Source: an uncultured Mycoplasmatota bacterium (lineage in GTDB: Bacteria; Bacillota_I; Bacilli_A; RF39; UBA660). From it: a stretch of DNA of 64,000 nucleotides. This document shows, in pieces, positions 16,103 through 48,219 of the stretch. The DNA lies in the NCBI GenBank assembly GCA_946488855.1, contig CAMLWC010000001.1, positions 2,688 through 66,687 of the forward strand, given 5' to 3'. Both the position numbers and the translations under genes were made by a program. Position 1 is the first letter of the stretch. The number at the start of each line of letters is the position of its first letter. The notes under the pieces are model-generated. The model saw nothing but the letters and a program-made list of their open reading frames with translations, searched no databases and was not told the origin of the DNA.

Positions 16103-16183
16103 TGTTAATCAAAGAGGAAAATTATATGATTGGTGATTAATATTATTTTGTCAAATTTAATGTAAAAAAATATATAAATTATA

Positions 16184-23093: not shown

Positions 23094-23131
23094 ATTAATA
23101 TGCTATAATATTGCCTAATGGGGGAAATTAT

Positions 23132-24379
23132 ATGAAACTAATTAGGGAAATGAATCTAAAAGAAGTTTATTCAGAGTTATTATTAGATAAAAAGTACGAT
23201 TTAAAACTGATATATAAAGACTTTAATATTAGTGAATTATATGATAGAGCAAGAGAATTATATAAAACTGAAACAGGTAATGAAAATATTTCAGATAAAG
23301 AATTAGAAAAATGGTTGCATGATAAATGTTGTTATGAAGTTTTAAGTGATTTATTATGGTTAATGGTTACAAAATTAAAAGATAGTGATAATTATAAAGA
23401 TGAATTTATGTTCTATAATTTTCATGTAATAATGGATATGATGAATGAATTTCTTATTGATTGTCAAGTAGATGAACAATATGATATTAAAAATTTAACA
23501 AGTTTAACTGAAGACGAAATAAATAGATATATTTGTGAAATATTAAAAGAAATTGATCCTTCTATAGAATGGTTAAATATATATTTAAAAGCAAAAAAAG
23601 AAGGTAAAATAATAAATATTAATAATTATTCGAAAGAAGAGTTAGAAAAATTAAGAGTCAAATTAAAATTAGATAAAATTCCAAGTGGTAGTAATTGTGT
23701 TGTTATAGATGATGAAACTTATTATTTGTTTCTTACACTTAATAGCACACTATACGATATTATTAGTACAATTCACGAATTAATCCATTTCATTATCACA
23801 GATAATAATATTTATTTACCGCCAATTTTATCAGAGTTTTTTTCTATTTTTTATGAAATATATGCTGTATCTTATTTACATAAACAAGGTTTTGATATTA
23901 ACGAATTGTTTACCATCTATCAAAAAATTAGAATTATTGACTTATCCCTTATTTCTTTAACTCTCACACCATTATATAATTATTTAAAAGTTTTAGCAGA
24001 ACGAAGAAAAATATCTTTAGATGATGATATAAAGTACTACGTAGAAAGATTAAAATCTTTAAAAAGAATTAATAAGCTTCCCATTAAATATAGTAAAATA
24101 CAACCAATTGATTTAGCTTTTGAAAAATGTGATAAATATATAGAATTTTTATTAGATGATGAATTTTATAATTTATATCCATATGTTGTTGGTAGTGGTT
24201 TAGCTTTTGAAGCAATGAAAAAATATGATAAAAATTTATTGAATAAAATAAGAGGTTTTGTTAATCCAACAAGCTGTGTTGATCCATATGAAGTTTTTAG
24301 TATATGTGGTTTTATAGAAGAAGATTTAATAAGAGTAGGGGAAGGACTAAAAGAATTTCAAAAAGAAAAAAGACCTTAA
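23132..24379 (+). CDS. hypothetical HExxH protein (putative zincin-like metallopeptidase)
   Basis: TIHELIHFI HExxH with a downstream Glu. Start placed at MKLIREM behind GGGGGAAATTAT. Confidence 0.45.
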   Translation: MKLIREMNLKEVYSELLLDKKYDLKLIYKDFNISELYDRARELYKTETGNENISDKELEKWLHDKCCYEVLSDLLWLMVTKLKDSDNYKDEFMFYNFHVIMDMMNEFLIDCQVDEQYDIKNLTSLTEDEINRYICEILKEIDPSIEWLNIYLKAKKEGKIININNYSKEELEKLRVKLKLDKIPSGSNCVVIDDETYYLFLTLNSTLYDIISTIHELIHFIITDNNIYLPPILSEFFSIFYEIYAVSYLHKQGFDINELFTIYQKIRIIDLSLISLTLTPLYNYLKVLAERRKISLDDDIKYYVERLKSLKRINKLPIKYSKIQPIDLAFEKCDKYIEFLLDDEFYNLYPYVVGSGLAFEAMKKYDKNLLNKIRGFVNPTSCVDPYEVFSICGFIEEDLIRVGEGLKEFQKEKRP

Positions 24380-39698: not shown

Positions 39699-39968
39699 CT
39701 ACTTTCTTAAATTTAATTCTTTAATTACTTTTCTGTATCTTGTTACATCATGTTTTAATAAGTAATTTAATAAACTTCTTCTTTGACCTACTTTTTTAAG
39801 TAAACCACGTCTTGAATGAAAATCGTGAGTGTGTTCTTTTAAATGTTCAGTTAAAGTGTTTATTTCATCAGTTAAGATAGCGATTTGAACTTCAACACTA
39901 CCAGTATCTTGGTCATTTTTACCAAATTTCTTAACTAATTCTGCTTTTCTTTCTTTAGTTAAAGCCAT
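39699..39968 (-). CDS. rpsO: 30S ribosomal protein S15
   Basis: 89 aa with conserved GSVEVQIA and [10 protein letters not shown] segments. Confidence 0.95.
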
Positions 39969-40310
39969 TTTATATTCTCCTTTCTTTATATATTAGCTTA
40001 TATCCAAGAAATAAACCGGAGAAGATTTAATTCCTAGAAATAAGTACTATTTAATAATACACTATATTTTATAAAAAGTAAATAGTTTAAGTAAATTTTT
40101 AATATATTATTTTACTATATTCTTTTTTGGAATTCTTTTTTACTATTTATAAATAATTTTAATGATACAATCTGAACTTTGGATAATCCTTTAAAAATAA
40201 TATTATACTTGTCAAAACAAATATCGTTTAAATTATCAAGGTTTGTAATAATATTTTCATAAACAACAATTCCATTTTCTACACAAAAGACTTTAATAAT
40301 ATTATTTTCT

Positions 40311-41171
40311 CTATTTAAACATTTTATAAGGTTTTAATTTGTTTCCTTCTTTTTTATATAGCCCAATTACATCATCATCTATAAATAATACATACTCTTG
40401 ATTATAAATATTATCTAATATTTGACCATTTATAACTTTAAATTTTAAATCTCTATCTACTTTAACAGTAAAATAATCTTTTAAAGCTTCTTTGATTGGT
40501 ATTATTTTATAATTATTGTTTTTAATATCTTCTAAAGTATAAGAATTTTTAATGTTAAAATTACCTTGTTCTAATCTTACTAAATTTTTCATAGTTCCAA
40601 TAGTATTTAATTTGGTAGCAATATCATTAATTAAACTTCTAATGTAAGTTCCTTTGCTAACTTTACAAGTAAATTTAAATGTTGTTTTATTATCAATATA
40701 ATTTAATTCATCTAATTTAATTTCTTTAATAGTTACCATTCTTTTAGGTAAAGTTACTTCTTCATTATTTCTAGCATATTCATATAATTTTTTACCATTT
40801 ATTTTAACAGCAGAATAAATAGGCACTTCTTGATTATATGATCCAGTAAAAGAATCTAATACTTTAATAATTTCTTCTTTTGTATAATTAGCATTACATT
40901 CTTCTAAAATATTCCCAGTTATATCTAAAGTATCCGTTTTAATACCTAAAATAACCTCTGCTTGATAAACTTTTTCTTCGCTAGTTATTATTTCACTTAA
41001 TTTAGTAGCCTTATTAATAGTTAAAACTAAAACACCAGTAGCAATAGGATCTAAAGTACCTGTATGTCCTATTTTTTTAGTTTTAAATATTTTTGATACT
41101 TCATTAACTACATCTCTACTTGTTATATCTTTTGGTTTATTAACAACTAATAATCCGCTAGTCTCTATCAT
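40311..41171 (-). CDS. truB: tRNA pseudouridine(55) synthase
   Basis: GHTGTLDPIATGVL catalytic Asp motif. Confidence 0.9.
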   Translation of the reverse strand: MIETSGLLVVNKPKDITSRDVVNEVSKIFKTKKIGHTGTLDPIATGVLVLTINKATKLSEIITSEEKVYQAEVILGIKTDTLDITGNILEECNANYTKEEIIKVLDSFTGSYNQEVPIYSAVKINGKKLYEYARNNEEVTLPKRMVTIKEIKLDELNYIDNKTTFKFTCKVSKGTYIRSLINDIATKLNTIGTMKNLVRLEQGNFNIKNSYTLEDIKNNNYKIIPIKEALKDYFTVKVDRDLKFKVINGQILDNIYNQEYVLFIDDDVIGLYKKEGNKLKPYKMFK

Positions 41172-41835
41172 TTAATATTAAAACTAATCTTAATAATTGT
41201 AATAAGTTAGAAATTAATCCTGCTACATATGTCATAGCAGCAGCAAATAAGACTTTACTTACTTGTTCATGTTCAGAGTCATCAATTAAACCTAAAGAAA
41301 TTAGTTGTTCTTTCGCTCTTTTCGAAGCATCAAACTCAACTGGTAAAGTAACCAATTGAAATAAAATAGTAACACCTAAAACTAAAATACTTATTTTTAA
41401 ATAACCAGTTAGTCCAGCAAAAATAGATATAAACAATCCAAAATAACCTAAATATGAAACTAAATTAACAAATGGAACTAAAGCAGATCTAATTCTCATA
41501 AATGTATATCCTTCTTTATCTTGAATAGCGTGACCACATTCATGAGCTGCAACACCAACAGAAGAAATAGAATCTTCGTGGAAAATTGCACTAGATAATC
41601 TTACAACTTTTCTAGTTGGATCATAGTGATCAGTTAATTCTCCTTTTGTTTCAACTACATAAACATCTTTTAATCCATTAGCATCTAATATCTTTCTTGC
41701 TACTTCTTGACCAGTTAATTTTGATTTAACTGTATATTCTTTATATTTTTTGTAATTACCTGTTACATTAAATTGTGCCCATAAAACAATTATAAAACCT
41801 AAAATTCCTAATCCATAATATATAAATAAATCCAT
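41158..41835 (-). CDS. membrane zinc metallopeptidase (Zn_peptidase_2 / YpfJ-like)
   Basis: HECGHAIQ HExxH motif, TM segments at both ends, 225 aa. Confidence 0.65.
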   Translation of the reverse strand: MDLFIYYGLGILGFIIVLWAQFNVTGNYKKYKEYTVKSKLTGQEVARKILDANGLKDVYVVETKGELTDHYDPTRKVVRLSSAIFHEDSISSVGVAAHECGHAIQDKEGYTFMRIRSALVPFVNLVSYLGYFGLFISIFAGLTGYLKISILVLGVTILFQLVTLPVEFDASKRAKEQLISLGLIDDSEHEQVSKVLFAAAMTYVAGLISNLLQLLRLVLILNDRD

Positions 41836-43226
41836 TAAATCACCTCGTATATTGTACCTTCTCTGGTATCTTTTATTTTAATATTTTTACTTTCTAATTC
41901 TTTTCTTATATTATCAGCTTTTTCATAATCTTTATTTTCTTTAGCTAATTTTCTTTCTTCAATTTTTTCATTAATATATTTTATTAATTCTTCATCTAAT
42001 TCTTTTTCATTATCTAACAAATTTAATGATAAAACTTTATCGAAATCATTAATTATTTCTAACTTAGTATTACCATTTACATCTTCTTTTAAAACATCAT
42101 ATAAACAAGTTAACATTAAAGATGTATTTAAATCATTACTAATTGCTTCTTTAAATTTTTCTTGATATTTTTTAACAATATCATTGTCAACATTTCCTTC
42201 TTCTTTAATATTTTTTATTTTATTTAATAATTTATTATATGTATTAGTTGCTTTATCCAAAGCTTCATAACTAAATACTAATTGATTTCGATAATGAGAT
42301 TGTAAGCAAAAAAATCTATAAGCTAAAGGATTATAACCTTTACTTTCTAATAAAGAAACAGTTAAAAATTCACCTTTACTTTTACTCATTTTTCCAGTAG
42401 CATCATTTAAATGTTCACCATGTAACCAATAATTACACCATTTATGCCCTAAATAAGCTTCTGATTGCGCTATTTCATTAGTATGGTGAGGAAATATATT
42501 ATCAACACCACCACAGTGAATATCTAAATGTTCACCTAAATAATTAATTGAAATTCCAGAACATTCTATATGCCAGCCTGGATATCCAACTCCCCATGGA
42601 CTATCCCATTTCATAGCTTGATTTTCAAACTTACTAATTGTAAACCACAAACCAAAATCACAAGGATTTTTTTTGTGAACATCTTCGGTAACATCTTCTC
42701 TTGCACCTATTATTAATTCATCAGGATTTTTACCAGATAATTTATAATAATCTTTTGCTTTAGAAATATCAAAATAAACATTACCATTAGATATATATGC
42801 ATATCCATTTTCTAATAATTTTTTAATCATTTTTATATACATATCAATATGGTCTGATGCTTTTTCAACTATTTTAGGTTTTCTAATATTAAGTTTTTTA
42901 GAATCTTCAAAAAATGCTTTTGTGTAGAAATCAGCTATTTCATAAACAGTTTTATTTTCTCTAATAGCTCCTTTAATCATTTTATCTTCGCCTGTATCTG
43001 CATCACTAGACATATGACCAACATCAGTTATATTCATACATCTTTTTACATTATAACCAACATATTCTAAACCTTTTTCTAATATATCTTCAAATATATA
43101 TGTTCTTAAATTTCCTATATGAGCATAATGATAAACTGTTGGTCCACATGTATATAAAGTAACTAAATCCTTATTATATGGTTTAAATTCTTCTATTTCC
43201 TTATTTAATGTATTATATAATTTCAT
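41835..43226 (-). CDS. cysS: cysteine--tRNA ligase
   Basis: HIGNLRTY (HIGH) and KMSKS motifs plus a Zn-binding Cys. Confidence 0.95.
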   Translation of the reverse strand: MKLYNTLNKEIEEFKPYNKDLVTLYTCGPTVYHYAHIGNLRTYIFEDILEKGLEYVGYNVKRCMNITDVGHMSSDADTGEDKMIKGAIRENKTVYEIADFYTKAFFEDSKKLNIRKPKIVEKASDHIDMYIKMIKKLLENGYAYISNGNVYFDISKAKDYYKLSGKNPDELIIGAREDVTEDVHKKNPCDFGLWFTISKFENQAMKWDSPWGVGYPGWHIECSGISINYLGEHLDIHCGGVDNIFPHHTNEIAQSEAYLGHKWCNYWLHGEHLNDATGKMSKSKGEFLTVSLLESKGYNPLAYRFFCLQSHYRNQLVFSYEALDKATNTYNKLLNKIKNIKEEGNVDNDIVKKYQEKFKEAISNDLNTSLMLTCLYDVLKEDVNGNTKLEIINDFDKVLSLNLLDNEKELDEELIKYINEKIEERKLAKENKDYEKADNIRKELESKNIKIKDTREGTIYEVI

Positions 43227-43284
43227 AATTAATCACCTATTTATATTATATCATAATGTACTATAAATTAAAACAAAAAACGCA

Positions 43285-44520
43285 TTATTGCGTTTTTGTT
43301 AAAGTTTTTTCAGCTTCCATTTCAGAAGTATCTTCTAAACATTTTAATGATTCATGATTTATTATAGATCCTAAATATTTAGACCCATTAACAACAGCAT
43401 CAGTTCCATCAGTTCCGTATGATAAAGTTTTTATATCAACTTTATTTTCAGCTGTAATGTATTCACTATCAGCATATACAACTGAGAACATTGGCCAATA
43501 TTGTTCAGACAATAATCCACCACCTGATGTTAAAGAATAATTAGAATATTCTGTTCCATTTGTTACTATATCATTTCTACCAGTATAGAATTCAGTAACA
43601 TATTTAAATGATTCTTGAAATTCTTCACTAGTCATTTCTTTATTTTTTAATCCATTTGCTAAATCAACAAATTCAGTATTTAATTCTTCTAAAATTGTTT
43701 TATCTTCTGAATCATAAGCTAAAGGTGCTAAAGAGATATATTGTCCTTCTTCTTGTCCTAAAGCAACATTATTGTTATGTGTACCTACTGCTGAAGTATA
43801 ATTATACATATTTTGAATTTCTTCTATCATATTTAAATCTGTATTAGCATATAACGTTTTAATATCTTCTTGATCTAAATAATCAATATTAGTTATAAAT
43901 AAAGCAGATTTAATAAATATTGGATCAATATTCAATCCTTTTGATTGGTTATCAGCTAAAATTTCTTGTGCCTTTTGTTCAATATTTTCAGCTGTTAATA
44001 ATTTATTTTCTTGTTCTATATTAGAATCGATAGTATCATCTTCATCGACAACAGAAGTTTCCATAGGTACATTATTATTTAAAGCTTTTCCAATTTTATA
44101 TCCTGCTACTAAAGAAGCTATAATTAAGCCACCAACAATTAATTTGTATTTATGTTTACCTAATACTTCTTTTGCTTTTGGATATACATTTAATTTGCTT
44201 TTGTTGCTTTTGGTAGTTTGTTTAATATTTGATTCAGAAACTTTATTTACATCATGTTTTTTATCTTCATATTCAAACGTATCGACATCTTCAAATAATT
44301 TTCTATCATATTTTTTTCTTTTTGAAACATTGCTTAAAGTTTCATAAGCTTTTCTTGCCTTTAAAAAATATTCTGCTTTTTCATCACTTAAATCAGAAAC
44401 TTTCTCTGGATTATAGTATTCATCAATTTGTTTGAATGAATCTTCAATCTCTTGTTGACTAGCTGAATCACTAACCCCTAAAATTTCATAATAATTCTTT
44501 TTTTCTTTAAATAAATTCAT
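43285..44520 (-). CDS. J-domain (DnaJ N-terminal domain) membrane protein with large extracytoplasmic domain
   Basis: YYEILGVSDSASQQEIEDSFKQ J-domain start, though the catalytic HPD tripeptide is not evident. One TM segment at about residue 130, followed by an acidic domain. Confidence 0.6.
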   Translation of the reverse strand: MNLFKEKKNYYEILGVSDSASQQEIEDSFKQIDEYYNPEKVSDLSDEKAEYFLKARKAYETLSNVSKRKKYDRKLFEDVDTFEYEDKKHDVNKVSESNIKQTTKSNKSKLNVYPKAKEVLGKHKYKLIVGGLIIASLVAGYKIGKALNNNVPMETSVVDEDDTIDSNIEQENKLLTAENIEQKAQEILADNQSKGLNIDPIFIKSALFITNIDYLDQEDIKTLYANTDLNMIEEIQNMYNYTSAVGTHNNNVALGQEEGQYISLAPLAYDSEDKTILEELNTEFVDLANGLKNKEMTSEEFQESFKYVTEFYTGRNDIVTNGTEYSNYSLTSGGGLLSEQYWPMFSVVYADSEYITAENKVDIKTLSYGTDGTDAVVNGSKYLGSIINHESLKCLEDTSEMEAEKTLTKTQ

Positions 44521-44599
44521 AATAAATTCCCCCTTCTTTTTTCATGATTAAACTATCATAAAATATAAATTTGTACTATTTCTTCAGTTGTTGCCATAT

Positions 44600-44627
44600 A
44601 TTATAACATATTTTTTTATTTTGTCAA
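44600..44627 (-). promoter_or_regulatory. consensus sigma-A promoter (TTGACA-16-TGtTATAAT), copy A of a duplicated cassette
   Basis: Minus-strand read: TTGACAaaataaaaaaatatgtTATAAT. The RBS AAGAAGGGGGAATTTAT is identical to that of copy B. Confidence 0.65.
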
Positions 44628-44662
44628 ATTAATAAATTTTTTAATTTTTTTATAAAAACATC

Positions 44663-44691
44663 TTGCATAAAACAATTAAATGTGTTATTAT
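44663..44691 (+). promoter_or_regulatory. tRNA promoter (TTGCAT-17-TGtTATTAT)
   Basis: The -35 and -10 hexamers and spacing were read directly from the sequence. Position is 20 nt upstream of the first tRNA. Confidence 0.5.
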
Positions 44692-44710
44692 GTAGAAGTA
44701 TTAGTTACAT

Positions 44711-44787
44711 GGACCCTTAGCTCAGTTGGTTAGAGCATCCGGCTCATAACCGGGCGGTCGTAGGTTCGAGTCCTACAGGGTCCACCA
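44711..44787 (+). tRNA. tRNA with CAU anticodon (elongator-type; likely tRNA-Ile2/lysidine or tRNA-Met), CCA encoded
   Basis: Cloverleaf GGACCCT/AGGGTCC acceptor, CTCATAA anticodon loop and a TTCGAGT T-loop. G1:C72 and the absence of three GC pairs in the anticodon stem argue against initiator tRNA. Confidence 0.85.
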
Positions 44788-44793
44788 TATAAT

Positions 44794-44878
44794 GCGGATG
44801 TGGCGAAATTGGCAGACGCACTAGACTTAGGATCTAGCGCCTTATGGCATGGGGGTTCAAGTCCCTTCATCCGCACCA
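44794..44878 (+). tRNA. tRNA-Leu (anticodon UAG), CCA encoded
   Basis: GCGGATG/CATCCGC acceptor, anticodon loop CTTAGGA and a long variable arm (class II). Confidence 0.85.
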
Positions 44879-44893
44879 GTAAGCTTAAAATAT

Positions 44894-44914
44894 CAACCAT
44901 AATGGTTGTTTTTT
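44894..44914 (+). terminator. rho-independent terminator after tRNA pair
   Basis: CAACC-ATAAT-GGTTG hairpin followed by T6. Confidence 0.5.
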
Positions 44915-44957
44915 CATATTTAATACTACATCAATAAATGCTAAGGAGGAATAAAAA

Positions 44958-45803
44958 ATGAATTTTATTGATTTAAATGAACAACATAACAAAATAAGAA
45001 CTAAAAAAGAATTAATTGAAATGCTAAAAATATATAAAGGAATATTAAATAAATCAATGATTAGCTATTTAACATCATTAATAAATTTAGAATTTTCAGT
45101 TATAAGAGATTATATTGAAGATAACGAAAGAATCGCTTTATCAGAATTAGAAATATATAAAAATGCAGCAATATATAATATTTGCAAGAGAACTATAAAT
45201 ATTGTTAAGCAAAAAGATTTAAAACTTTCCATAAATAATTATAATGATGGTTCAGGATTTTTAACTATATATGGATTAATTGGGAAAAAAAGCATTCAAT
45301 TATTTGATTTTAATTATAGAGAAGGTCCTATCGGTTTTGAAACTACAATTCCTAGAGGATATAAAACTATGAATATTGGAGAAATATCACTATATCAAAC
45401 GTTAGAAAATGAAGAATTAAGAAATGTTGAATTATTAAAAATAATGGGAAAATTAGAAAAATTGTATGATCAAAAAAATCCATATACATCTCGTCAAGAA
45501 GTTTGTGGTGGACCTAATTCAATTTGGGATTTTGAACGTTTTAAAAAAATTCAAGAATACGAAAGAAGGTTTAACCAATTAGATAGTAAAAAAGGACTAG
45601 ATGATGATGATAAAAAAGAAATAGAAATGACAAAAATAGTTTATGATGCATTATTAGAAGATTATGGATTAACTAATGAAAGTTTTAGTGAAGAAAAACA
45701 ATCTTTAACTTTATTATCTCGTGAATATAGTACAGAATTACAAAAAAAATTAGTAAAAAAGATGCCAAATATAAAAATTGAAAATAATATTAAATATATT
45801 TGA
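44958..45803 (+). CDS. hypothetical protein
   Basis: 281 aa with a GGAGG RBS and no recognisable motif. Confidence 0.5.
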   Translation: MNFIDLNEQHNKIRTKKELIEMLKIYKGILNKSMISYLTSLINLEFSVIRDYIEDNERIALSELEIYKNAAIYNICKRTINIVKQKDLKLSINNYNDGSGFLTIYGLIGKKSIQLFDFNYREGPIGFETTIPRGYKTMNIGEISLYQTLENEELRNVELLKIMGKLEKLYDQKNPYTSRQEVCGGPNSIWDFERFKKIQEYERRFNQLDSKKGLDDDDKKEIEMTKIVYDALLEDYGLTNESFSEEKQSLTLLSREYSTELQKKLVKKMPNIKIENNIKYI

Positions 45804-45898
45804 TTTTATAAAACAATGATATAAATTATTATTTCATTAAAAAATATTTTCAACCATTTAGGTTGTTTTTTTATAATAAAAAATCCTTATTTAAGGAT

Positions 45899-46318
45899 TT
45901 ATTTTTGTAACATTTTTAATAAGTTTATTTTAAACATATCTTTTTCTTGATTTTCTTTAGATACCATAACGCCTTTATAAGTTGTTAGTTCTGATTGATG
46001 TCCTTCTCCTAATATTCCTTCAGGAGTTATTTTATCTAACATTACAATTTTTTCATTAAAATATACAGTATAATGTAGTTTAATATCACCATGAACTTTA
46101 GAAAACATAGTATCAGTTGGTAATTTTAATTCATAATTTTTAGAATTATTTTGATCATTTGTACTTATAATTTCACCTAAAAAATTACCTTCTTTAAATG
46201 ATGGATAAAATGAAAAATATAATTTTTTATAAGCCAACATATTATATTTTTTTAAGGATCTTTCATACTTTCTAAATTCATTTTCGTTTACATATTCAAA
46301 TAAGTAACTATCTTTCAT
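45899..46318 (-). CDS. hypothetical protein
   Basis: 139 aa with a GGAGG RBS (revcomp of cctccgat) and no recognisable motif. Confidence 0.45.
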   Translation of the reverse strand: MKDSYLFEYVNENEFRKYERSLKKYNMLAYKKLYFSFYPSFKEGNFLGEIISTNDQNNSKNYELKLPTDTMFSKVHGDIKLHYTVYFNEKIVMLDKITPEGILGEGHQSELTTYKGVMVSKENQEKDMFKINLLKMLQK

Positions 46319-46398
46319 ATATCCACCTCCGATTCTCTCCTATTCTTTATTCATTTTAACATAATAATATGCAAAAGTCAAACATAAAAAGAAGAAGT

Positions 46399-47850
46399 TT
46401 ACACTTCTCTTTTTCTACCAGTTAATTCGTAACCTAAACTTAATAAATTTTGATCATTTTTGCTAGTACTCCATTTATAATAAGTACCTGCAACTGTCAA
46501 TTGTTTACGAGTTCTATATCTATAATAAGTTATATCCTTATAAACTGGAATTTTTCTTGTTTTTTCAACTTTTTTAGTAACTTCAACTGGTACTGTAGTT
46601 GTTACATCTTTATATACTGGAACATCTTCATAAACAGTAACAGTTTTAACACAATTTGAACCACTTAATTTATAACTGCTACCATATGTTGAACAAGATA
46701 ATGTTCCTGAACCACTTGTTACATATTTATAACATTTTGTATTAGCACCACTACCTTCTTTTGTATATCCAGTTGGACATGAATAAGTAGTTGTTCCTGC
46801 ATTATATTTTCTAGTATATTTTTTATATGTATAAGTAGTAACATTTTGACATACATTTGTACAATCAACTGTAGTTTTATGACTTACATATTCATATTTT
46901 ACAGTATTACTTGAAGATAAAGCGTATTTAGATGTTGTATAGCCTTGATATACCCAACTTCCATAACTTCCTGATGTAGTATTTTTAATTGCATTAGTGT
47001 ATTGTTTTTTACTTGTACTTCCACCAGTAGCAGGTTTAGTATCAATTACTTTTGTACCAACCGGTTTAGAAGTAGTACCAACTTGAACTTTAGTAGTTTG
47101 TTCACGATATTCGATAGTTGTTTCATAATCATAATAAGTTTCGGTTTTATATCCTGTTAACTCATTACGTTTATCAATTTCAACTTGTCTTAATGTATCC
47201 GCTGTAACTTTAGTTGTAGACCAATTAGACCATGGGCCCCAATTAGAATAAGTATTTTTTGTAACTAATTTATATTCATATTCATATTTCTTATTAACAA
47301 CAGGTGTTTCTGGTTCAGATGGTGTTACTGGTTTTGAAGGTGTTGTAGTTTCAGGCTTTTCTTCACATATTGCACCATCACAATAATCATAACATCCCAT
47401 ATAAACTATGATGTAGTCAGAGTAATCTGAACAAGTTAATTGAACTTTCATTTGATATTCATCACTCATTTTAGTAACTTGAACATAAGATTTGTTAATA
47501 TCACATGATTGATTATTACTATCTTTAAATGGAATAACTAATTTCTTTTCTTCCATTTCTTCTAATGTTATAGTAACGGAATCACCTATTTTTTTAGGTA
47601 ATCTTTCATTTGTAAAATATCCTTGTGCTGCATCACGCATACTTTCAACATTATCAGTAAATAATCTACCATATAATGGTTGCAATTGCATAGCAATTTC
47701 ACTTGTTAATTCTTCTTTTCCAACAAAATTTTCTTTTAAATAATTTTTAGTAGGAAATAACCAAATCATTACAAAAACAAATAAAACTACTAACATTAAT
47801 TGTAAAATAACGTCTTTGAATGAAAAATCATTTCTTCTTTCTTCGTACAT
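46399..47850 (-). CDS. membrane-anchored Thr/Tyr/Ser-rich, Cys-rich surface protein
   Basis: N-terminal signal-anchor VILQLMLVVLFVFVMIWLF. More than 20 Cys, a NWGPWSNWS Trp ladder, and repeated VPVYKDV / IPVYKDI segments. Confidence 0.6.
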   Translation of the reverse strand: MYEERRNDFSFKDVILQLMLVVLFVFVMIWLFPTKNYLKENFVGKEELTSEIAMQLQPLYGRLFTDNVESMRDAAQGYFTNERLPKKIGDSVTITLEEMEEKKLVIPFKDSNNQSCDINKSYVQVTKMSDEYQMKVQLTCSDYSDYIIVYMGCYDYCDGAICEEKPETTTPSKPVTPSEPETPVVNKKYEYEYKLVTKNTYSNWGPWSNWSTTKVTADTLRQVEIDKRNELTGYKTETYYDYETTIEYREQTTKVQVGTTSKPVGTKVIDTKPATGGSTSKKQYTNAIKNTTSGSYGSWVYQGYTTSKYALSSSNTVKYEYVSHKTTVDCTNVCQNVTTYTYKKYTRKYNAGTTTYSCPTGYTKEGSGANTKCYKYVTSGSGTLSCSTYGSSYKLSGSNCVKTVTVYEDVPVYKDVTTTVPVEVTKKVEKTRKIPVYKDITYYRYRTRKQLTVAGTYYKWSTSKNDQNLLSLGYELTGRKREV

Positions 47851-47930
47851 ATAAATTCCCCCTTCTTTTTATGGCTCATATATTACCATAAACTTATATT
47901 TTTGTCAATATTATCTCCGTTGTTGCCATT

Positions 47931-47958
47931 ATTATAGCATATTTTTTTATTTTGTCAA
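47931..47958 (-). promoter_or_regulatory. consensus sigma-A promoter (TTGACA-16-TGcTATAAT), copy B of duplicated cassette
   Basis: Minus-strand read: TTGACAaaataaaaaaatatgcTATAAT. The same RBS as copy A follows about 75 nt downstream. Confidence 0.65.
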
Positions 47959-48219
47959 ATTAATATTAACTATGGTACATCCTACATTAAACGGATGAAT
48001 TTTATATTCTAAAACATTCTTATTATTAGATAATACAATTTTAGTAGTTTCCTTTAATATTCCAGTTCCTATTCCATGAATTATAACGATAAATTTATTC
48101 TTCATTTTGATATTATCATTAATAAAATCATTAATCGCAACTCGTGCTGTTTCTCTATCAAAACCATGTAAATCTAAAGATGGTAAATTATCTATAAATA
48201 TTATATCATTTAAATTCAT
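47947..48219 (-). CDS. Smr-domain protein
   Basis: LDLHGFDRETARVAI...IIHGIGTGILK matches the Smr motif pattern. Length 90 aa. Confidence 0.7.
   Translation of the reverse strand: MNLNDIIFIDNLPSLDLHGFDRETARVAINDFINDNIKMKNKFIVIIHGIGTGILKETTKIVLSNNKNVLEYKIHPFNVGCTIVNINLTK

Follow-up and report, generated by a model that had tools for sequence, protein, structure and literature searches.

Highly similar sequences upstream of non-paralogous genes in one genome have been described as putative mobile promoters. The survey of Matus-Garcia, Nijveen and van Passel (NAR 2012; commentary PMC3575422) reported >4000 families of similar sequences before non-paralogous genes, most of which are pairs with ~92% identity over at least 50 nt, and its criterion was at least 80% identity over at least 50 nt within −150..−50 of the start codons. 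Here, we describe a pair that resembles these families, located in a 64-kb stretch of DNA (the window, to which all coordinates refer; 23.7% G+C) from an uncultured Mycoplasmatota bacterium. Two cassettes of ~115 nt, copy A and copy B, are read on the minus strand in direct orientation, 3.3 kb apart, and each stands before the gene of a membrane protein (gene A and gene B). From ATTAATTTGACA to CAACAACkGA, about −112..−62, the cassettes match in 47 of 50 columns, and the two proteins are unrelated, with a BLASTP E of 0.89, different predicted architectures and completely different predicted folds. Unlike the surveyed families, they occupy fixed positions over a deep clade and remain similar through a second promoter and the ribosome-binding site (RBS). 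Copy B also overlaps the 3′ end of the upstream gene, an overlap that the survey's filter would exclude. No movement between genomes was seen, the same two orthologous positions being occupied in all related genomes compared.

Tandem promoters provide a second point of comparison. In the rRNA operons of Bacillus subtilis and E. coli, two sigma-A/sigma-70 promoters, P1 and P2, stand in tandem (PMC3113569). B. subtilis rrnB P1 has an extended −10 element (TGn), an A/T-rich discriminator and a G at +1, about 7–8 bp after the −10, and −5T is reported to be necessary for sensing of the initiating nucleoside triphosphate (PMC3113569). Copy B likewise has two −35/−10 pairs on one strand before a single gene, with spacings inside the 16–18 nt typical of tandem sigma-70/sigma-A promoters, whereas copy A has P1 only. 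The cassette P1 appears to share with rrnB P1 the extended −10, an A/T-rich (ATAT) stretch between the −10 and the start, and Gs near the likely start. Unlike the rRNA promoters, the cassettes would drive membrane-protein genes and have a P1 spacer of 16 nt; the Gs lie at a distance of 5–6 nt from the hexamer, and an A occupies the third position beyond the hexamer in place of the −5T of rrnB P1, so far as the predicted elements can be equated.

Surface lipoprotein genes of the Mycoplasma vlp, vsp and vsa families share conserved 5′ expression regions, with a homopolymeric A run in the promoter spacer. These genes are paralogous, have signal-peptide regions in common and switch by slippage or inversion. 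The present locus is similar in that a Mollicutes-like, low-GC organism has surface-protein genes with a near-identical promoter/5′ region and an A run, but A and B have unrelated coding regions and a spacer that does not vary in length, and neither a recombinase site nor polymorphism was seen. Finally, rrn operons show concerted evolution by gene conversion between dispersed repeats (PMC8022953). The A and B copies within a genome similarly share derived changes that differ between genomes; in contrast to rrn operons, the cassettes are short, non-coding and only two in number, and their homogenisation would be episodic, since orthologues stay nearest neighbours among close species. Promoter reuse and tandem promoters are known already, and the cassette pair is a further example, not a new mechanism.

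Anatomy of the two cassettes

A first-pass annotation of this DNA had reported that a promoter, a +1 region and an RBS are near-identical at two sites, and alignment confirms this, with boundaries that move by only a few bases (Table 1). At both sites TTGACA is followed by a 16-nt, A-rich spacer with TGy at its end, then by TATAAT and (AT)ATGGCAACAAC; after a middle part come AAAAAGAAGGGGGAATTTAT and (T)ATG. Between copies, the promoter/+1 block is identical at 46 of 48 positions (blastn-short, E 2.5e-15) and the RBS block at 20 of 20 (E 9e-6), the next-best match inside the window having an E of 0.009. The 28-nt P1 promoter string and the 20-nt RBS string each occur exactly twice in the window, where shuffles give expectations of 0.00 and 0.08; this is well beyond the chance identity of AT-rich DNA, as the annotation had supposed.

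For comparison, orthologous loci were fetched from related uncultured 'Bacilli bacterium' metagenome-assembled genomes (MAGs), by means of proteins A and B and two pattern scans, and 27 cassette copies from 15 genomes, 12 of them with both copies, were aligned. A profile built from these 27 copies recovers copy B (47963..47848, E 2.6e-22) and copy A (44632..44522, E 3.1e-16) when run with nhmmer. The annotation had raised the prospect of further copies. None was found in the 64-kb window, where the third-best profile match has an E of ~4 and string and blastn searches gave the same answer; over 426 kb of loci the profile finds exactly 2 copies per locus, and collection scans yield, within the clade, A and B orthologues only. 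One candidate, at 16147-16157, was rejected because it has only AATTTGACAAAATAA in common with the cassettes.

The upstream promoter, P1, agrees with the consensus at 12 of 12 positions and has the TG extension at both sites, and the promoter scan found no other such site in 12.5 kb. In all 27 aligned copies its −35 and −10 are 100% conserved and its spacer is 16 nt. At copy B, the −35 and first spacer bases double as the last residues (L-T-K) and stop codon of an Smr open reading frame (ORF; 47947-48219). Immediately after the P1 −10 lies a box, ATATGGCAACAAC(T/G)GAG, with a mean conservation of 85% across species.

The middle part, which the annotation took for a homologous but diverged leader of ~50 nt, is better described as a second promoter, P2. 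Its general form is TTGACA-17-TGGTAATAT, with TGG-TAGTAT or TGG-TAATAT across species. Copy B has it intact (TTGACA-17-TAATAT, with TG), and the two middles look diverged because P2 has decayed in copy A. This decay is common to the window genome and its two closest relatives, L012 and L020, and the P2 parts of A and B in the window genome are 58% identical. Across the 27 copies, the P2 −35 is 100%, the TGn 96% and the −10 94% conserved; the spacer is only 71% conserved, yet is 17 nt long in every copy. Judged from such alignments, invariant hexamers at a fixed distance around a variable spacer are a promoter signature and not an RNA signature. In L044, a more distant relative, copy B has a P1 and a P2 that match at 39/50 positions and look like a tandem duplication, with identical −35, spacer, TG and −10. 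Other window genes have an extended −10 ~15–30 nt before the ATG, so P2 sits at this genome's usual promoter position. In fact, most of the 59 called window genes have their own such element (TGnTAnnnT), a placement that implies very short 5′ untranslated regions (5′UTRs) and near gene-by-gene transcription in this genome, provided that these predicted promoters are used.

Both cassettes end in a strong Shine-Dalgarno (SD) sequence, AAGGGGG, 7 nt 5′ of the ATG and preceded by an A-rich stretch. Its GGGGG is invariant in all A and B orthologues (>40 copies), with no reversion to the GGAGG or AGGTGA usual in this genome. An SD with five Gs (G5) is used by 3 of the 59 window genes, and among 234 genes examined its users are mostly A and B orthologues. 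When a metagenome collection was scanned for the exact RBS block, 5 loci were returned, and in each of them an A or B orthologue follows. The sole further G5-SD gene among the 59 is a plus-strand ORF at 23132-24379, whose 415-aa product has no Pfam or NCBIfam match. The sequence before it (23094-23134, ATGCTATAATATTGCCTAATGGGGGAAATTATATG) resembles a compact, single-promoter version of the cassette 3′ half, but the match is not significant (nhmmer E 5); as a third cassette it was rejected, having only the extended −10 and the G5 SD in common.

On this evidence, we think it likely, if well short of certain, that each copy is a compact single-gene expression module, consisting of two sigma-A-type promoters in tandem and a strong SD. 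Transcripts from P1 would have a 5′UTR of ~75–80 nt, and those from P2, which lies about 50–90 nt downstream of P1, one of ~20–25 nt, the normal length for this genome. Copy B would retain both promoters, while copy A, in the window species and its two closest relatives, probably depends on P1. The pair is older than the diversification of its clade, a group of uncultured gut Bacilli with low GC content. The copies would be kept alike by purifying selection acting on promoters and SD, and occasional gene conversion probably helps. The consequence would be similar, probably strong and constitutive, expression of both membrane-anchored proteins, and given the shared promoter, +1 region and RBS, a common expression behaviour of A and B can reasonably be expected. 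The locus would then offer a clean, dated natural example of promoter reuse, in which two promoters and an RBS are shared over the long term by two unrelated genes. It also draws attention to two conserved envelope proteins, both of unknown function, that are probably expressed together, and the cassette may serve as a ready-made strong promoter/RBS design for uncultured low-GC gut Bacilli that could aid annotation and genetic tools.

Age of the pair and probable exchange between its copies

The four-part layout is present upstream of both genes in 12 of the 12 genomes in which both loci can be read, and the cassette also occurs at every further locus where only A or only B is readable. Across species the layout runs P1, box, variable insert, P2 (TTGACA, 17 nt, TGG TAGTAT), A-run, GGGGG, ATG. 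In the relatives that carry it, identity with the window proteins falls to as little as 40% for A and 49% for B, and even in L044 (B 47% identical) the cassette is recognisable at both loci. Because both loci carry the cassette in all 12 of these genomes, the comparison identifies the pair as ancient and not as a recent capture; any duplication would predate the clade. In one relative (L038, 2505-6017 of a 1.13-Mb contig), genes for a serine recombinase (Resolvase/Recombinase) and a Mob_Pre relaxase lie just upstream of the A cassette. These inserted genes separate it from the B locus, and the cassette is intact.

When close species are compared, a given copy is more similar to its orthologue than to its paralogue. 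The window copy A, for example, has an identity of 0.94 in the P1 block and 0.91 overall with copy A of L012, compared with 0.92 and 0.64 with its own copy B, and a locus-specific mark is kept (CTGAG in A, CGGAG in B). Nonetheless, the copies are not independent. Identity between A and B is 0.716 within genomes versus 0.658 between genomes (permutation p 5e-5). In L037, a stretch of 28 nt departs from the clade consensus at 8 positions in the same way in A and B; in L044, the block CACAAATTGAAAGAGGGGGAA is common to both; and in L024 and L035, the same palindrome is inserted in both. In addition, Smr has an Ile codon immediately 5′ of the −35 that varies synonymously, and in each of three close genomes it agrees with copy A (ATT/ATT in the window, ATC/ATC in L012 and L020). 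The simplest reading of these sequences, as they suggest, is occasional gene conversion between direct repeats 3.3 kb apart. Such conversion would be rare, since orthologues are nearest neighbours and the locus mark persists in close species. As to the inserted palindrome, TTAGAnAnTTnTCTAA, it lacks the CIRCE core, and a CIRCE operator was rejected on sequence; a CtsR operator was rejected likewise, there being no tandem GTCAAA heptads.

The expectation that the cassette is unusually conserved as a whole was not borne out over 110 nt. The rpsO gene (39699-39968, minus strand) ranks first among the upstream regions tested, its 110 upstream nt being 92–95% identical in most related genomes. Within 39912-40310, the minus-strand segment 39912-40027 gives a sub-threshold match to the Rfam S15 leader (26.2 bits against a gathering threshold of 39.5, E 0.0076), so the region upstream of rpsO is probably a divergent S15 autoregulatory leader.

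Weighing of the alternatives

Several observations weigh against the expression-module reading. A plain promoter and SD model does not account for the GGGGG that never reverts, nor for the box after the P1 −10, nor for an inverted repeat around the P2 −10, which persists with different arms and is kept in copies with a decayed P2. Conservation of the cassette across species, taken over 110 nt, does not exceed that of other upstream regions, and the rpsO upstream region is more conserved; strong constraint can therefore be argued from the individual elements but not from the identity of the whole. The rarity of gene conversion is a further difficulty, and parallel selection could mimic conversion. 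In addition, the start sites and promoter activity are deduced from consensus matches.

Some of these points are what would be expected if the cassette were a dedicated cis-regulatory site, in DNA or RNA, for a lineage-specific trans-acting factor. Such a factor might recognise the +1 box (CAACAAC-GAG), the hairpin that precedes the SD, or the A-rich/GGGGG region, which does not vary; A, B and a few other G5-SD genes of distant relatives would form a small regulon of exported proteins, and sequence identity would reflect factor binding and not promoter strength alone. The 85% conservation of the box is in line with this, as is the invariance of GGGGG in A and B orthologues, when only 3 of 59 window genes use G5. 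In L044 and L045, moreover, a single such promoter with a G5 SD stands before one or two other genes nearby, whose function is unknown, and the genome-specific 3′ blocks common to A and B could reflect co-evolution with the factor. However, no operator-like dyad is common to both copies, and no candidate regulator was identified. Overall, we regard this alternative as unlikely.

The hairpin deserves closer scrutiny. The inverted repeat encloses the P2 −10 and stops a few bases short of the SD. For a hand-specified 7-bp version, 87% of cells are paired, with GC replaced by AU in 3 sequences, from the clade that lost P2; 4–9 of 500 shuffles pair as well. The stem is 5.8 bp long compared with 4.5 bp at 56 control promoters (p 1.4e-4, from non-independent sequences). 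The compensatory changes favour a factor, but the covariation comes from one clade and counts as a single event, related sequences inflate the p-values, and stems of 4–5 bp are already common around control promoters in AT-rich DNA. The arms differ in deep branches (GUGCUA/UAGCAC and GUGUU/AACAC in L044, UUGUG/CACAA in L036), the register shifts between species, and the A-equivalent of L041, a metagenome relative, has lost P2 altogether and the hairpin with it. A hairpin bracketing the P2 −10 is possible but unproven.

Broader tests of RNA structure were negative. Rfam has no match in the cassettes, either at the gathering threshold (two tRNAs only in the window) or at E up to 1 (39900-48100). 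Leader folding of A and B is no better than that of shuffles (z −0.13 and −0.70), RNAalifold predicts 0 pairs for the 27 leaders, and the aligned leaders, read by eye, contain neither an SD complement nor a GC hairpin with a U tail. By these tests the cassette does not look like a structured RNA leader, and the annotation's suggestion that the leader might fold found no support in these results. More specific candidates were dropped. AUGGCA in the P1 +1 box could pair over a distance with UGCCAU, which precedes the SD, but L014_B, L036, L037 and L038 do not conserve this pairing; a leader peptide from the ATG in ATGGCAACAAC would begin too near the −10, and this ATG is absent in L014, L015 and L038; and a TTG-initiated upstream ORF seen in L012_B stops after 4 codons in the window.

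A more specific form of the factor hypothesis is that the GGGGG region, the P1 box and the compensating hairpin together are the recognition site of an undescribed lineage-specific regulator, a protein or a small RNA. We give this a shade less credence than the general form. If true, the regulator would tie together the production of two exported proteins whose function is unknown, and of at least three in distant relatives, in genome-reduced gut Bacilli, and the genome-specific co-variation of A and B would be co-evolution with the factor, not gene conversion.

It is also conceivable that the cassettes have no common descent, and that a consensus promoter, an A-rich spacer and a strong SD arose twice by convergence, as an effect of AT-rich composition. 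Shuffled AT-rich 110-mers align at 63% identity, and the P1 string by itself proves to be a poor marker. An exact scan of 185,579 species genomes for this 28-nt string, TTGACAAAWTAAAAAAANATGYTATAAT, gave 19 loci. Ten are in the clade, all 10 upstream of A or B orthologues; the other 9 (L017, L021, L025, L027, L029 and L031-L034) are in unrelated MAGs, whose labels include Clostridia, Ruminococcus, Treponema, Eubacteriales, Acutalibacteraceae and Mollicutes, where the match is limited to the 28-mer and unrelated genes follow. Two of the loci with this string are near-identical Eubacteriales loci with the same 71–79-aa ORF, and one has a GC-rich, structured-looking leader. The P1 28-mer is a convergent, recurrent, near-ideal promoter, and because it recurs in unrelated bacteria before unrelated genes, it alone is no proof of homology. 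The annotation had leaned on 25 of 26 identical promoter positions; the identity is real, but it carries less weight than was given to it. This calls for general caution, in that consensus promoters with A-rich spacers can become almost perfectly identical by convergence. What supports the homology of the cassettes instead, as far as sequence comparison can establish it, is the +1 box together with the RBS block, and the pattern across related genomes. The box and the 20-nt RBS block are not consensus elements, yet are identical between copies; the same four-part order is found at both loci in all species, with a G5 SD that is atypical for the genome; and multi-nucleotide changes and an inserted palindrome are shared in a genome-specific way. 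Convergence as the whole explanation is thus improbable.

Still less credible is a recent capture or duplication in this genome, in which recombination gave one gene the promoter of the other, as the annotation had proposed. The 46/48 identity of the P1 blocks within the genome speaks for it, and the Smr Ile codon that matches copy A in three close genomes fits a P1-block conversion tract of that subclade. Against it, the cassette is at both loci in every relative where both are readable, down to 40% protein identity, and the window copy A is closer overall to that of L012 than to its own copy B, the P2 parts of which have diverged as described. Least probable of all, to the point that we give it almost no weight, is a small intergenic element, mobile or repetitive (MITE, Correia, ERIC or BOX-like), with an outward promoter, or a promoter made phase-variable by A-tract slippage: promoter-bearing intergenic repeats are known (PMC3575422) and these surface-protein genes of a Mollicutes-like lineage have an A7 run in the P1 spacer, but the two copies have no shared terminal inverted repeats, are the only ones and keep fixed orthologous positions in all genomes, phage and plasmid collections match nothing beyond AT-rich noise, the P1 spacer is 16 nt in every copy examined, and cassettes at 11 of 11 same-species loci from nine metagenome assemblies are identical, with no length polymorphism.

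Genes A and B and their surroundings

Table 1. Features of the two cassettes and of the adjoining genes; sites are predictions from sequence or from structure models.
Feature	Position	Strand	Remarks
Cassette copy A, whole	44521..44632	-	Upstream of the gene for a 411-aa J-like membrane protein; nhmmer and sequence
Cassette copy B, whole	47851..47963	-	Upstream of the gene for a 483-aa Cys-rich membrane protein; nhmmer and sequence
P1, copy A	44600..44627	-	−35 TTGACA 44627-44622; 16-nt A-rich spacer with TGT end; −10 TATAAT 44605-44600
P1, copy B	47931..47958	-	−35 TTGACA 47958-47953; 16-nt spacer; −10 TATAAT 47936-47931
Box after P1 −10, copy A, ATATGGCAACAAC	44587..44599	-	Shared with copy B; probably holds the P1 start site
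Box after P1 −10, copy B, AATGGCAACAAC	47919..47930	-	Shared with copy A
P2, copy A, decayed	44550..44576	-	GTACAA for TTGACA, TGATAGTTT for TGGTAGTAT; aligned with P2-bearing orthologues
P2, copy B	47880..47908	-	−35 TTGACA 47908-47903; 17-nt spacer; TGG + TAATAT 47888-47880; 10/12 plus TG
Inverted repeat, copy A, UUUUAUGA-N8-UCAUGAAA	44540..44563	-	Just 5′ of the SD; minimum-free-energy and centroid fold; 8-bp stem; G-C replaced by A-U as compared with copy B; weakly supported
Hairpin, copy B, UUUAUGG-N11-CCAUAAA	47868..47892	-	Brackets the P2 −10
Shine-Dalgarno AAGGGGGAA, gene A	44527..44535	-	Start codon 44520-44518; in the 20/20 block shared with B
Shine-Dalgarno AAGGGGGAA, gene B	47856..47864	-	Start codon 47850-47848
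Gene A, 411 aa	43285..44520	-	N-terminal J-like domain, disordered and membrane-spanning middle, C-terminal all-alpha domain; structure model
Terminator-like hairpin, end of gene A	43276..43297	-	Overlaps the stop codon; 9-bp stem, then T-rich tail
cysS extended −10 promoter, TGATATAAT	43245..43253	-	Equivalent upstream of cysS in L044 and L045
Gene B, 483 aa	46399..47850	-	N-terminal transmembrane helix, small alpha/beta domain, long beta-ribbons, Cys-rich; model
Terminator-like hairpin, end of gene B, AGAAGT-GTAA-ACTTCT, then TCTTTTT	46393..46408	-	Weak; clearer equivalent in L044
Promoter of the 139-aa gene, TTGACT-17-TAAAAT	46353..46381	-	Promoter scan

Gene A has a Pfam DnaJ match (1.6e-12), but in its J domain NPE stands in place of the catalytic HPD motif (residues about 34–40). 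The HPD motif is present in 1 of the 31 homologues that keep the J domain, and 9 of 40 homologues are without a J domain; from its sequence, the protein is unlikely to act as a canonical Hsp70 co-chaperone. The C-terminal all-alpha domain is modelled with high confidence (predicted local distance difference test score, pLDDT, >90) and has no match in the PDB. In L044, the gene in the position of A encodes a remote homologue of this C-terminal domain (hhalign E 9e-5) without a J domain, and the cassette is present before it. Gene B has no Pfam or NCBIfam match and no significant PDB fold match. Its model has beta-hairpin ribbons of ~50 residues with conserved Cys pairs, and the best of the non-significant PDB matches to the protein model are the stems of pore-forming toxins (E 0.07). 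For the two proteins together, PDB sequence and fold searches returned the J domain only, and NCBIfam added nothing further. Hidden paralogy of A and B was rejected, there being no sequence similarity and different predicted folds. The annotation's view that two non-homologous envelope proteins share one expression signal is supported.

Downstream of A follow cysS, a Zn-peptidase gene, truB, rpsO and pnp, and downstream of B an ORF of 139 aa. The terminator-like hairpins and separate promoters after both genes (Table 1) indicate that each cassette serves one gene, and that there is no cysS/truB operon of which gene A, as the annotation had it, would be the first member. The same layout of hairpin and promoter is found upstream of cysS and of the 139-aa gene in L044 and L045. 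The 139-aa gene itself (45899-46318) is far more conserved than gene B, with 92–97% identity across most of the clade and 78–82% in the two most distant genomes; like gene B, it belongs to no known family. Between the A and B units, the other strand carries a 281-aa ORF and genes for tRNA-Met and tRNA-Leu. For these tRNA genes there is a divergent promoter-like site on the plus strand, TTGCAT-17-TATTAT with TG, within 44640-44710, just 5′ of the P1 of copy A, and relatives conserve ATGCAAG, the reverse complement of its −35 region, ahead of copy A. A single A/T-rich upstream stretch would therefore be common to both divergent promoters.

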